A stretch of DNA of 64,000 bases from Eledone cirrhosa (Eukaryota): positions 18,724,001 to 18,788,000 of the forward strand of contig OZ024749.1 in the NCBI GenBank assembly GCA_964016885.1, written 5' to 3'. Shown piece by piece: positions 3,925-59,327 of the stretch. The position numbers and the translations under genes are program-made. Position 1 is the stretch's first letter. The number at the start of each line of letters is the position of its first letter. Below the pieces are notes generated by a model. It saw nothing but the letters and a program-made list of their open reading frames with translations, was not told where the DNA came from and did no database searches.

Positions 3925-3990
3925 TATTTTGTCTGAGGAAGGCATAGCATATTGTTAATATGATATCCCCGAAATATATATAATGAAATA
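3925..3990 (+). ncRNA. Type I hammerhead ribozyme
   Basis: TATTTTGT CTGAGGA [imperfect stem II] GAAA TATATA TA ATGAAATA. Confidence 0.75.
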
Positions 3991-4510
3991 AATATGGTTT
4001 TATAAATATAGTTTCCATTTATTTAATATTGTAAATATACTCCAAATATTTGTCGAGTGCTTTTATATCAGTTATAAATATTTACTAGTTGTAACCCAAC
4101 AATTTTAAATATAACTTTCCATATATATATATATATATATATATATATATATATATATATATATATATATATATACATATATATATATATACATATCTAT
4201 ATATATATATATATATATATATATACATATATATATATATATATATATACATATATATATATATATATATACATATATATATATATATATATATATATAT
4301 ATATACGTATATATATATATATATATATATATATATATATATATATATATATATATATATATATATATATATATTAGAAAGTGAGGTTTTTTTTACAAAA
4401 TGAAAAATAACCGAGGTGTCCTACACGAGTGAAAGTATAAAGAAAATGAAATGAAATCGAAAATGCAACTGGAGTCTTATTTTTTTTTAAATATATATAT
4501 TTATTTGGTT

Positions 4511-4548
4511 CCTTTACCGGTTTCGCAGTTCTTCTGCTTTTCAAAAGG
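4511..4548 (-). ncRNA. Minimal type I HHR, U3-A8 core variant
   Basis: Minus strand: CCTT TTGAAAA GCAG aagaa CTGC GAAA CCGG TA AAGG. Confidence 0.85.
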
Positions 4549-5566
4549 TGAGGTGAGATGGAGGGTCTGTGGTTTTTCTCACATCTGGTTGGTCTCTGAA
4601 TGTTACTTGTTTTATATGGAAAAAGTGGCTCGAAATGCCAGGTTTTTCGAGAAGTAATTTGATTGGTTTGTCAATAATTATAATAAATTTCGCGCCAGTT
4701 CGCGTTACAATAGTTCTTCAAATAGTTCTTGTCACAGGTTGTTTTTTCATATATGAGTGTTTGAATTTCTTTTTACTTGAAAAAAGGAGGCTCACGAAGG
4801 GTTTTTTTTTTGGTTGGTTATAAATGAAATTTGGCTGTCACGTGAACAAGTTTTCATTACATTTTTGCGCCCTTATTTGGAAAACTATTCTGTAGTCTTT
4901 ATAGTGAATGTTATGACAATGGAGAGATAGTGGTCAAGAGAAAAGGGATGTCAGAGTTCAGATTTTCTATTGAAGTGAAGATATGTATGTTTATTTGTGT
5001 GCTTGTGTGTGTGTGTGTGTGTGTGTGTGTGTGTGTGTGTGTGTGTGTGTGTGTGTGTGTGTGTGTGTGTGTGTGTGTGTGTGTGTGTGTATGTGTGTAT
5101 TGGAAGATGATTCTATTAGTAGAGATGGGGGAGGGAGTTGTGTGTGTGTGTATATGGGTGTTATGTGTGTGTGTGCGAGTATGTTAAGATGGAGAGAATA
5201 TATATTTTGTGTGTGTGTATATATATATGTGTGTAGGAAAGTGGTTCTATTAGTAGAAATGGGGAGGGAGTTGTAGGTGTGGGGGTTGTTATGTGTGTGT
5301 ATGGGTGTTATGTGTGTGGGAGTATGGTTAGCATGTTAAGATGAAGAGAATATATATATATATATATTGTGTGTGTGTGTAGGAAAGTGATTCCTTTAGT
5401 AGGAATATTTTTGAATGAACATATTTTCCTTACTTTTTCGTGTTTGCTGTTGTATTGCCAGTGCAAACGTATGTTAAGGTTTATTTAGTTCGGGTTTTTA
5501 TTTTCTAAAGTAGAAGATGTTATGTGTGTGTGTGTATGTCATATTGTGGTGTTGACATAATGTATA

Positions 5567-7837
5567 TTAAACCTCATTTAATGTTGGTCTATATTTTTGA
5601 ATAAACATATTTTCCTTATTTATTCGCATTTGTTCTGTTGTATTGTTAGCGCAAAGGTAAAATGGGAAGACTTGGAATTTGGGTGTCTTATTACTTGCGC
5701 AAATGTCTAGATGTGCACTTAGTGGTATCTATCTCGTGGTTGGATCTCGTAATTGTTGGCGATGAACTGTCATTCTGTTTCTGAGTGTGAGTTTAGTTTG
5801 TCCTATATAATCTTCATTGCATCCTTTACATTTAATGGCATAAATTAGATTTTTTGATGAGCAAGTGAAGTGATCTTTTACAGTAAAATTTTGTCCTGAT
5901 TTAAATGTATACGTGTTGCCTTCAATGAGGTGAGTGCAGGTTCCACAATTAGAGCGACCACATTTTTTGATACTTGGTTGTGGGTTTGTGGTAGGTAATT
6001 TGGCATTGGTGAGTAATGTTTTCAGTGATTTTGGTTGTCTTTTGCTTTTGATTATTTTGTGTGTTTCAAGGGCTTTTTTCCTTCTTGGGTTTTGTTTTAG
6101 TAGTGGGATGTTCTTGTGAATAGTGTTGTAAGCTTCCGCATTTCTTGGGTTGTGTGTTGAGATATATGATAGAATATTGGACGTACCTTGAATTTGTTTC
6201 TGTTTCCGTAATTCATCAATGCCTATTGCTTTAGCCCTTTCTATTCCATTATTTATTAGTAATAGTGGGTACTCTCTCTCGAGTAGAATTTCCTTTAATT
6301 CTTGAAGTCTTTTATTTCGCGTTTCATAATTGGAGACAATTGTGCAAATTCTTCTTGCTAGGTTAAAAGGAATGTTCGTCTTCGTGTGCTTTGGATGGTT
6401 GGAGGTGAATAGCAGATATTGTTTGGAATCTGTTGGTTTGTAGTGTATGTCAGTTTCGATATTTGTGTCTTTTTTTATGATTAAGATGTCCAAAAATGGG
6501 AGTTGATCTTGGCTGTATTCCATTGTGAATTGGATGTGGTTATTGATGCCGTTTATTAAGTTTTTGAAATCCTTCAGTTGGTCGAGTGTGTGGGACCAAA
6601 GAATGAGGCAATCATCCAAGTAGCGTTTCCAATTCTCTGATAAATATTTGTGGAAGTTCAATCCGTATTTTGATTTGGACTGTTCATATATCTGGACTTC
6701 TAAGTATGCCATGACTAAGTTGGCATAAGTTGGAGCGGCTTTTGTACCCATCGCAGTCCCCGATATTTGCTTGTAAGTATTGCCATCGAAATCAAAAAAG
6801 TTGTTCTGTAAGATGAATTTTAATCCCTCGGTGATGAAGCTTTTTTCTATTCTGTCAGGTATCTCATAGGGATATTTCTCTAGCCAGAATCCTATTGCTT
6901 CTAGTCCGTATTGGTGTGGGATCGTTGTGTAGAGATTCACTACATCGAAAGACACAATAATAGTGTCGTTGTTGACATGTTTGGTAAGGTGGTTTAAGAG
7001 GTCCAGATCGTCTCTTACAAGGCTTGGTATGTGTTTCAGTATTGGTTTCAGTAGTATGTCTATAAAGTTGCTCAATCTGTGTGTTTCACATTGTGGACCC
7101 GCTACAATTGGTCTTAATTTAAGGTCTGTGGGGTATTGTGTGTTCACGCAGGCTGAGGTGGATTGCTTACAGGCATCGTTGATTATTTTACATTTGTGGA
7201 TCTTCGGAAGTCCGTAAAGATTGCTGGTTTTGTATTCAAAATGTGTTAAATAATCGCGTTCCTTTTTAGTTAGGTCTTCCTGGTATCGATAAATCAGTGT
7301 GTTTAATTTGGTCATTATTTTTGATTGCTGGTAGTTTTTTACTCTTTCATAGTAATTAGTATTTTGTAAGAGAGAGAACATAGAATTTTTATATTTTTCA
7401 GCCTCCATAATGACAACAGTACTTCCCTTGTCCGCTTCCTTAATTACAATGTCCGTATTGTTTTTTAGTTCATGGATAATCTCCCATTCCCTTCGACTTG
7501 TGTTGGGTTTGGGTTTGGGTTTAGGTTGCGGTAGTTCATGGAAGGTAGCTATGTGGTCACAAAATTTGTCCAGAACTCTGTTTCTACCTTTTGTTGGGTT
7601 GTAACTGCTTTTATTCCGTACAATTGATTCGTCGTTATTCTCCTTGTCAAAGAATTCCTCTGTGAGACGTAATTTTCTACAGAAGTGTGAGATATCGTCA
7701 TTTATCTCGTTGGGGTTAGGATATTGTGGTGTTGGTGTGAATTTCAGACCTTTGGAGAGAATTTTTACTTGTTGGGCTGAGAGGTTTGTATTTGAAATGT
7801 TAATTATTTTCGGTTTTTCAAAATCGGTTTGTGCCAC
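5567..7837 (-). pseudogene. Neptune-type PLE RT/GIY-YIG with premature TAG near the C-terminus
   Basis: LSKGLKFTPTP, YGLPKIHK, FDVVNLYT, GTAMG, YLDD, CGRSNCGTC, LIY..YIG; the frame continues past TAG 5729-5731 (IPLSAHL...KENMFIQKYRPTLNEV) to TAA 5567. Confidence 0.9.
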
Positions 7838-57361: not shown

Positions 57362-57586
57362 ACAATTAAGTTAAAAGTGTACATCTACATATGTATACGG
57401 AAATATTAGTATGCATATAAATACACACATGTATACATATGTACATGTACTGAGTTTTTCACTGGACACTTTACTGTGAGTGTCCAGCTAGTCTGTATGT
57501 AACCAAACAGACAAACCGGGTTTTAGAGTCATACGGGTTTTCAAGGAAACACATTTCCTCTATTCTCCAGAATAGAGGAAATGTGT
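57362..57586 (-). mobile_element. Diverged partial 469-bp family unit with an 18-bp terminal fold-back (57549-57586)
   Basis: Reverse complement of about 50414-50620. Confidence 0.85.
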
Positions 57587-58979
57587 ATATATACATATAT
57601 ATATATATATATATATATACATATATATATATATACATATATATATATATATATATACATATATATATATATATATATACATATATATATATATATATAC
57701 ATATATATATATATACATATATATATATATATATACATATATATATATATATATATACATATATATATATATATACATATATATATATATATATATATAT
57801 ACATATATATATATATACATATATATATATATATATATATACATATATATATATATACATATATATATATATATATATATATATGTGTATATATATATAT
57901 ATATATACATATATATATATATATATATATATGTGTATATATATATATGTATATATATATATATATATGTATATATATATATGTATATATATATATATAT
58001 ACATATATATATATACATATATATATATACATATATATATATACATATATATATATATACATATATATATATACATATATATATATACATATATATATAT
58101 ATACATATATATATATACATATATATATATATACATATATATATATACATATATATATATATACATATATATACATATATATATATATATATACATATAT
58201 ATATACATATATACATATATATATACATATACATATATACATATATATATATATATATATATACATATATATATATATATATACATATATATATATATAT
58301 ATATACATATATATATATATATATATACATATATATATACATATATATATATACATATATATATATATATATATATATATATACATATATATATACATAT
58401 ATATATACATATATATATACATATATATATATACATATATATATATACATATATATATACATATATATATATACATATATATATATATATATATATATAT
58501 ACATATATATATATATACATATATATACATATATATATATATATATATACATATATATATACATATATACATATATATATACATATATACATATATATAT
58601 ATATATACATATATACATATATATATATATATATATATACATATATATATATATATATACATATATATATATATATATACATATATATATATACATATAT
58701 ATATATATATATACATATATATATATATATATATACATATATATATATATTATATATATATATATATATATATATACATATACATATATATATATATATA
58801 TACATATATATATATATATATATACATATATATATATATATATACATATATATATATATATATATACATATATATATATATATATACATATATATATATA
58901 TATATATATACATATATACATATATATATATATATATATATATATATATATACATATATACATATATATATATACATAT
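57587..58979. repeat. (TA)n array, C-interrupted
   Basis: Direct reading. Confidence 0.98.
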
Positions 58980-59179
58980 GTAGATAAATCTACCAAGAGT
59001 TTACGGTAGTGTCCAATCCGTATGAAGAACTCAATGTAATCCGGATATCATGGAAAGAAGAGATGCAATGAAAAATCACTTTCGGTGAAAGATAAACGGA
59101 ATACAGAGTCAAGATAAAATATTTAAAAAATAATGAATAAAACAATGAAACAGTTCCTTACATTAAACAAAAAAAGTTT

Positions 59180-59327
59180 ATTATTTAACGATCGTTTCTA
59201 GGATATATATGTGTTAGAATTGGCATGCATATTCAACAGATCTATGTACAAAATTATACAAAATTATACAAACTATCAAAATTAAATATACATACCAACA
59301 CATATATATGCCGTCTTCAGAAATAAT
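59180..59327 (-). ncRNA. Type I HHR with about 115-nt stem II region
   Basis: ATTATTT CTGAAGA cGGcATATATATGTGTTGG...CTAACACATATATATCCta GAAA CGATCG TT AAATAAT. Confidence 0.8.

Follow-up and report, generated by a model that had tools for sequence, protein, structure and literature searches.

The question raised by this 64,000-nt stretch of Eledone cirrhosa DNA (contig OZ024749.1, positions 18,724,001 to 18,788,000; the whole of it is called the window here) is which elements carry the many hammerhead ribozyme (HHR) motifs found between its (TA)n arrays, and which machinery inserts those carriers that code for no protein. In the window 31% of the sequence is (TA)n, while the figure for 40 stretches of 10 kb, picked by hand from the same genome, is 4.4%; the window is a TA sink crowded with nested insertions, in which Penelope-type elements and small non-coding passengers are piled up within the TA repeats. 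In the reading that we consider probable, the motifs are minimal type I HHRs lying in the terminal repeats of Hydra and Neptune Penelope-like elements (PLEs) and in three retrozymes inserted in (TA)n, the retrozymes are copied in trans by PLE protein, and a conserved bulged hairpin is gripped by the Hydra protein, with reverse transcription beginning a few bases to its 5′ side. The motifs, the family identities, the TA flanks, the two fixed 3′ ends (one per arm) and the position and covariation of the hairpin are read directly from the DNA. The carriage of HHRs by such elements is an already known trait and the inventory is ordinary though dense; the insertion footprint in retrozymes and the shared hairpin go beyond published work and beyond the first-pass annotation of this window.

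Hammerhead motifs and their carriers

Hand reading of the islands between the TA arrays, together with a script check, gave 24 type I HHR motifs of 14 families between 3925 and 59328, 21 of them complete; the first-pass annotation had put them at about 23 motifs in about 13 families. The standard core (CUGANGA or UUGANAA, GAAA, UH) is found in 20 complete motifs, one more is complete with a U4C change (family D), and three are incomplete: only core and stem II are left of motif J at 45467, TA cuts off motif A at 56497 past stem III, and motif L at 50363 has lost U16.1. Most non-coding islands do hold an HHR, as had been claimed: among the 20 islands of at least 150 nt within 3925-59327, a complete motif occurs in 12 and a partial one in 1, and 7 are without any; these 7 comprise six other pieces of HHR-bearing families and one SINE-like (short interspersed nuclear element) repeat.

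A literature-derived descriptor required a C3-G8 or U3-A8 core, a stem II region no longer than 150 nt in which one defect was allowed, GAAA, a palindromic stem III, UH and at least 4 pairs in stem I; it was run on the non-TA islands and on 100 dinucleotide shuffles of them, the comparison that the first-pass annotation had proposed. Its strict form found 10 motifs against 0.02 in shuffles (maximum 1), and the medium form, with one stem I defect allowed, 14 against 0.10 (maximum 2). When the palindrome was not demanded, 12 were found against 0.29 and stem III was still palindromic in 10 of the 12. A first, tighter descriptor gave 3 matches only, because no defect was permitted at the base of stem II. 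With a free core (YUGANRA), 15 multi-locus families in 1.35 Mb divided into 10 C3-G8 and 5 U3-A8, and C3-A8 or U3-G8 was the majority core in none. These counts, with the core covariation and the compensatory stem changes between subfamilies, bear on the idea that the motifs are chance matches in AT-rich repeats. In favour of that idea, Rfam at gathering score reports no HHR or hairpin match in the window, and motif J is incomplete. Rfam at E<=0.5 also gave no match in 8 metagenome loci. The best Hammerhead_3 match had 19.9 bits at E 0.71, and a whole-window scan by E-value was swamped by TA-driven microRNA matches. The shuffle comparison refutes the chance explanation as far as sequence can, and its probability is negligible.

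Stems I and II pair, and compensatory changes are found in subfamilies of A, B and G; families C and I have a weak stem I, and the stem II regions of 88 and 115 nt are long-hairpin folds. Stem III is not palindromic in family F, and its duplex in the palindromic motifs is computed at -2.6 to -12.9 kcal/mol. The U4C change of family D is present in 22 of 23 copies examined, with stems intact. By core, covarying paired stems and palindromic stem III, the motifs are predicted minimal type I hammerheads. In a B-related subfamily (5 copies), GCAA replaces GAAA in the core and stems I and II have compensatory changes.

Judged from their sequences, 11 of the 14 families are pseudo-long terminal repeats (pLTRs) or 3′ fragments of coding PLEs, 7 of them Hydra, 3 Neptune and 1 other. 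Their features are the following.

1-205: fold-back piece of family M
552..4120 (+): PLE-A, Hydra clade, 5′-truncated, one in-frame stop; HHR 3925-3990, predicted cut after 3982; candidate start hairpin 4039-4058
4375..7894 (-): PLE-B, Neptune type (DKG, CX5CxxC, GIY-YIG), 5′-truncated; U3-A8 HHR 4507-4552
11249..15936 (-): PLE-C, Hydra clade, pLTR and inverted 5′ arm; open 979-codon frame 11476-14415; U3-A8 HHRs 11300-11346 (-), 14623-14669 (-), 15679-15725 (+); hairpins 14493-14564, 14385-14400; ends +59 and +219 past the cut
16039..16551 (-): family D, 3′ end of Hydra PLE; HHR 16070-16124, U4C core
26185..27933 (+): family F, 3′ region of Hydra PLE; HHR 27842-27895
29214..29660: family H, inverted pair of Neptune PLE 3′ ends; HHRs 29383-29427 (-), 29494-29538 (+)
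33530..34796 (+): family I, 3′ region of Neptune PLE; U3-A8 HHR 34607-34660, weak stem I
45152..45805 (-): family J, 3′ end of an older PLE with C-terminal endonuclease (DKSG, CX4CxxC); core and stem II only, 45426-45475
47439..50188 (-): PLE-K, Hydra type, 5′-truncated; HHR 47493-47563
55082..56111 (-): family M, 3′ end of Hydra PLE; HHR 55229-55351 (88-nt stem II), hairpin 55148-55188
56225..56537: inverted pair of PLE-A 3′ ends; HHR 56266-56331 (-) complete, 56489-56546 (+) cut by TA
58975..63822 (-): PLE-N, Hydra clade; open reading frame (ORF) piece 62621-63751; 3.3-kb 3′ region; HHR 59179-59328 (115-nt stem II), hairpin 59029-59109

The Hydra marks (RWK, DKT, CxCX5C and, at the C terminus, GIY-YIG without CCHH) are found in the frames of C, A, K, N, F and M; truncated Hydra-type copies show only part of the clade motifs, and the assignment is by motifs. 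Family D is placed in Hydra by RWR and 53% identity to C, and it has a 4697-bp unit elsewhere in the genome. The pLTR or tandem arrangement, the inverted arm, the tail at one end and the (TA)n target are all present among the Hydra-type copies. Neptune marks (DKG, a CX2-5CxxC linker, C-terminal GIY-YIG) are seen in B and H, the assignment being by motifs, with Neptune not separated from Nematis, and family I, with 60% identity to B, is tied to a Neptune ORF via genome copies. By such copies F is also linked with a Hydra unit of 5.07 kb and H with a Neptune unit of 4.2 kb, and M and N are linked with Hydra ORFs. Pfam gave no family for the Hydra ORFs of A, C, K and N, and a protein search gave unnamed relatives at 33-55% identity.

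The stretch 58975-63822 is a single element, N, with TA and CA tracts of its own in its 3′ region; since it carries these tracts, the element spreads its own target, and it hosts nested retrozymes (L191). A 2374-bp ORF-less tandem derivative of family N (L190:3308-5682) is a possible step between PLE and retrozyme. In both full-length copies of Neptune H, a 476-codon frame lies upstream of the reverse transcriptase (RT) frame and overlaps it (L186:3828-5255, L187:3538-4965), resembling an ORF1 with frameshift. Family J was considered as a type III HHR or a Naiad element and rejected, as no upstream strands were seen by eye and the J ORF has a C-terminal endonuclease. The short near-perfect fold-backs at 1-205, 29214-29660, 38595-38744 and 56225-56537 look like miniature inverted-repeat transposable elements or microRNA precursors and are instead inverted pairs of truncated PLE 3′ ends. 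An exact 31-mer of the H fold-back has 5562 copies (control 0), and a DNA similarity search with this fold-back returned nothing.

Only E, G and L, with 8 of the 24 motifs, classify as non-coding retrozymes. Their units measure 595 nt (E), 556 nt (G) and 469 nt (L), each with one type I HHR and a longest ATG frame of 62-76 aa, and the arrays reach 16 units. A first look gave at least 1458 candidate loci for E, at least 432 for G and at least 655 for L. The copies in the window are as follows.

18617..19809 (-): retrozyme E dimer, no ORF above 76 aa; HHRs 18686-18781, 19281-19376; hairpins 19144-19203, 19020-19036
25238..26056 (+): retrozyme E, 1.4 units; HHR 25727-25822
27979..29151 (-): retrozyme G dimer; HHRs 28052-28139, 28608-28695; hairpins 28509-28532, 28391-28415
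31765..32242 (-): retrozyme E fragment; HHR 31834-31927, one stem III change
50192..51158 (+): retrozyme L dimer; HHRs 50355-50401 (U16.1 lost), 50824-50870; without Hydra-type hairpin
57363..57585 (-): retrozyme L fragment without HHR

Insertion footprint of the retrozymes

The footprint was read only from top-scoring loci: for E 26 distinct ones among 30 fetched, for G 18 arrays and for L 18 loci. Retrozyme 3′ ends adjoin (TA)n in 102 of 103 cases, all 31 of L among them, with a background of 256 of 4000 random points (6.4%), and 5′-truncated ends adjoin TA in 16 of 20; TA on both flanks speaks for a target rather than a tail. The picture of TA-targeted autonomous PLEs accompanied by ribozyme-bearing non-coding parasites thus holds in that both are present and the retrozymes sit at (TA)n, whereas the share of parasites had been overstated, most HHR families being pieces of coding PLEs. 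The 5′ ends are scattered along the unit. As to whether TA is added at the primed end, the TA arrays at 3′ ends are not clearly longer than those at 5′ ends, a comparison of few 5′ ends and limited flank lengths.

Each retrozyme has two fixed 3′ ends, located about 76 and 245 nt (E), 79 and 201 nt (G) and 227 and 299 nt (L) past the predicted HHR cut. The PLEs have two as well (C 59 and 219, D 43 and 211, F 45 and 140, M 41 and 155, A 50 and 140, H 118 and 180). Head-to-head retrozyme insertions join one short and one long arm in 39 of 41 cases (G 13/13, E 14/15, L 12/13), and head-to-head PLE insertions do so in 12 of 12 (C 5/5, D 3/3, H 4/4, the window copies of C and H included). The two-end pattern is the PLE tail at one end, and the retrozymes carry the PLE footprint of TA flanks, 5′ truncation, inversion and two 3′ ends, which is direct footprint evidence that PLE machinery makes retrozyme insertions.

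The same loci bear on the view that the arrays are pLTR-derived satellites growing locally by unequal exchange, with no present RNA step, a route proposed in bioRxiv 10.64898/2026.07.22.740005. Some arrays do have local higher-order patterns, though not strictly periodic ones. Yet the copies of E, G and L are 98-99% alike and scattered over many contigs; TA lies at their borders, their 3′ ends are fixed and their 5′ ends random, and inversions occur, so that this view is already hard to hold and we regard it as very improbable.

As to the template, a cleaved linear monomer was rejected, since 5′ ends show no excess at the predicted HHR cut (2 of 106 within 3 nt, 1.4 expected). Strict rolling-circle periodicity was not seen either. 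Among the 18 G arrays, 4 have locus-private changes that recur in every unit, and the units of one array alternate as ABAB on both arms, a pattern that fits a circular template; other arrays are not periodic. Four contig sets from sequencing runs, compared with one E unit, have tandem or circular joints and no listed change in the HHR core; RNA and DNA are indistinguishable in them and they were not counted as evidence.

Retrozyme L (window 50661-51129) and its 448-nt relative Q (L191) both contain the octamer ATGCAAAT, and in each a predicted long helix brackets the long end. Newt satellite 2 has a promoter of the small nuclear RNA type.

Bulged hairpins beside the 3′ ends

Copies that read through an end have a hairpin just 3′ of it, in which N-CTC is followed by a stem-loop whose length varies freely, by the bulge U(U/C/A) of 2 nt and by GAG. 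Of 20 read-through ends in families C, D, F, M, N, K, A, E and G and in three neighbouring ones, 18 have this hairpin beginning 1-9 nt beyond the modal end, against a background of 0.55% per 12 nt; these 20 ends are the set from which the rule was derived. The outer helix is swapped from CTC/GAG to TTC/GAA in G, G2 and V, and the inner stem is free in sequence and 5-71 nt long. Two of the three retrozymes, E and G, have the hairpin twice each. Families H, B, I, L, P and Q lack it at their ends. In Neptune H (L187, 3′ of the HHR) each of the two ends is followed within a few nt by one side of a 10-bp helix, which begins past the short end and is closed past the long one; this helix is a candidate Neptune start signal.

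For a held-out set, C and 30 relatives were aligned and led to 77 metagenome loci, 33 of them with a sense-strand HHR. In these Hydra PLEs of marine metagenome contigs, 24 of the 33 stretches following the HHR contained 42 hairpins in all, where 200 shuffles gave 6.9 +/- 3.0 (maximum 19). Their positions cluster at +38-64 and +104-128, and truncated copies end about 2-8 nt short of a hairpin (L284, L286, L288, L293, L305, L335). When only the CTC and GAGC anchors were demanded, the first inner pair was formed in 37 of 40 instances in the 2-nt-bulge register (28 C-G, 9 U-A), whereas registers with a bulge of 0, 1, 3 or 4 were paired in 0, 2, 3 and 14 of 40; the 40 distinct instances come from 23 contigs, and related contigs are not independent, so counts are given and not probabilities. 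The published consensi Hydra-2_Amil, Hydra-1_Ajap and Hydra-2_Ajap, from coral and sea cucumber, contain the hairpin when read by eye (PMC8557442 supplement), Hydra-1_Ajap twice at its 5′ end. The word hairpin does not occur in the text and supplement of PMC8557442, and literature searches, mostly without subscription journals, found no published description of this hairpin or of a two-end footprint in retrozymes.

From its position and covariation, the hairpin is likely the signal for internal start sites of the Hydra RT, by which the retrozymes would hitch a ride. Otherwise, what fixes the ends could be microhomology in TA that the nicked target shares with the RNA, and the nearby hairpin would have another job (promoter, translation, packaging). 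TAT or TATAT does stand at most ends, and many PLEs have a second hairpin shortly upstream of the ORF start; but the G unit has further TATAT sites (4 altogether), and E a TATATAT, that do not serve as ends, and the hairpin lies at a fixed short distance past both ends and is kept twice in the ORF-less E and G. We judge this account clearly unlikely. The hairpin could also act as DNA, recognised by the GIY-YIG endonuclease in a donor or a complementary DNA (cDNA) intermediate and cut just 5′, which would set both ends and leave an identical genomic footprint. PMC8557442 attributes the PLE tail to resolution mediated by the endonuclease, and the Penelope endonuclease required the tail to cut a plasmid (cited in PMC11167929). 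A 2-nt bulge and an inner stem free in sequence and length, however, suit a folded single strand better than a duplex, and in vitro both tail boundaries are RT start sites on RNA (PMC11167929), so that a role at the DNA level seems unlikely to us.

In the mechanism that we favour, the start on RNA, two hairpins would be bound by the Hydra protein, which is probably dimeric, in line with the prediction for PAc, the Poseidon element of Anolis (PMC11167929, Frangieh et al. 2024), and the GIY-YIG domain of the Hydra protein would nick both strands of a TA array. Each nick would prime cDNA at one hairpin-marked site, just 5′ of the hairpin, on short TA microhomology. The template would be tandem RNA, either multimeric and uncut at its HHRs or circular, because the 5′ ends show no excess at the cut. 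Synthesis would pass through several units, up to about 15, and stop at random, and the two cDNAs would become joined in head-to-head orientation. Cutting by the HHRs would take place in dimers formed via the palindromic stem III, perhaps with protein help, to give unit-length linear and circular RNA.

Several points weigh against this reading. The cutting step finds no support in the genomic footprints, the count of 5′ ends at the predicted cut included. HHR mutants had no effect on insertion in the only in vitro PLE system (PMC11167929), and 8 of 9 Xenopus retrozyme dimers did not cleave (bioRxiv 10.64898/2026.07.22.740005). Cleavage, expression and protein binding of the present elements are predictions. 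Apart from low-complexity pieces, nothing in E or G aligned with the 11 PLE loci compared. Retrozyme L and its relatives P and Q have two ends yet no such hairpin and no matched partner. The two misses of the derivation set are the long end of N and a variant copy of A; the window copy of A has the hairpin. Nine of the 33 held-out stretches are without it by the strict rule, some of them truncated copies or chance HHR matches (10 antisense against 39 sense matches), and the copepod consensus Hydra-1_Crog deviates from the form (PMC8557442). Near the window one new family does carry the hairpin twice, but in 200 kb beside the window only 4 of 17 HHR matches have a downstream hairpin by the strict rule, one of these 4 being a likely chance HHR match; most of the others are truncated before the hairpin site or non-Hydra, and among 8 inspected, one keeps its anchors around an inner stem that is damaged and another has an altered anchor.

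We lean slightly towards a wider claim, that in Hydra PLEs of several animal phyla a dimeric RT-endonuclease docks and starts at a pair of conserved hairpins with a 2-nt bulge, each hairpin serving one target strand; this would explain the two-end tail, and E and G would spread by keeping this pair and an HHR. How PLE RTs pick internal start sites and which enzyme mobilises animal retrozymes are open in the cited papers, and a 16-30 nt motif beside both ends, covarying across phyla and common to autonomous and non-coding elements, makes both questions directly testable. With it, the ends of elements can be called and parasites assigned to their helpers. If the claim is true, the hairpin names the enzyme mobilising animal ribozyme circles, and any RNA could be aimed at (TA)n.

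Genomic setting and known systems

On a 400-kb sample, the 40 stretches named above, the HHR descriptor gave 15 matches in 7 of 40 stretches against about 0.5 in shuffles. The density is about 37 per Mb, and that of the window is about 6 times higher, in step with its TA content. Provided that the sample is fair, the genome-wide count would be of order 100,000 in the 3.0-Gb genome. The SINE and LINE content of the window is reminiscent of an octopod. The other insertions of the window are the following.

9087-11078, 40990-42769: second family of long interspersed nuclear elements (LINEs)
20605..24924 (-): APE-RT LINE, near full length, without HHR
35121-36200, 43282-44950, 52572-54879: further copies of the same APE-RT LINE family
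38989-39217, 39374-39445, 47244-47427: repeat in TA arrays, without HHR, which we take to be SINE-like

The six copies of the two APE-RT LINE families, 96-98% identical within family, are all flanked by TA arrays and have short tandem tails, and these families are possibly TA-targeted as well. Separate scans of two LINE copies and of one SINE gave no HHR, and none was found in the remaining ones when the whole window was scanned; the LINEs are neighbours in the TA arrays, outside the HHR system.

The first-pass annotation had called the HHR system hidden, but the literature knows it (PMC4209133, PMC7229834, PMC8557442, bioRxiv 10.64898/2026.07.22.740005). Its statement that PLE pLTRs and animal retrozymes carry type I HHRs is published, together with (TA)n targeting and an octopus Hydra PLE; in the available part of PMC13282606 ribozymes are not mentioned. 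Minimal HHRs in PLEs were described by Cervera and de la Pena 2014 (PMC4209133), and the present motifs agree with them in type I, palindromic stem III, the U3-A8 variant, the extra base at the foot of stem II, opposite-strand HHR pairs 100-700 bp apart and many families per genome. They differ in stem II regions of up to 115 nt, in a fixed U4C core family and in density, which contrasts with a few thousand per genome in that paper.

The Hydra clade, including Hydra-1_Obim of Octopus bimaculoides, and the clade definitions come from Craig et al. 2021 (PMC8557442), where non-autonomous Chlamys elements with pLTRs and tandem insertions are also described. The Hydra elements here share with it RWK, DKT, CxCX5C, the lack of CCHH and the C-terminal GIY-YIG, as well as the (TA)n target, HHR, pLTR, inverted 5′ arm and tail at one end. 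Their tails are 90-170 nt against 30-40 there, their units reach 6-8 kb, and the double bulged hairpin is not remarked in the available part of that paper.

E, G and L resemble the animal non-LTR retrozymes of PMC7229834 and bioRxiv 10.64898/2026.07.22.740005 in their non-coding tandem units with one type I HHR each, GC below 45% and dispersed dimers and multimers, and PLEs were proposed as mobiliser there. Those papers argue from co-occurrence and pLTR similarity, whereas here the insertions bear the PLE footprint and a candidate cis-signal common to one PLE clade; circular retrozyme RNA was demonstrated there and the retrozymes here are known from DNA alone.

With PAc, whose tail is bounded in vitro by two internal RT start sites (PMC11167929), the present elements would have in common two internal RT starts 3′ of the HHR, cutting and extension of both DNA strands and a predicted dimer. 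The PAc starts lie in an AC-rich stem-loop inside the ORF with no target homology; unlike these, the starts proposed here would fall within non-coding RNA, make use of short TA microhomology and each stand 5′ of a separate conserved hairpin.

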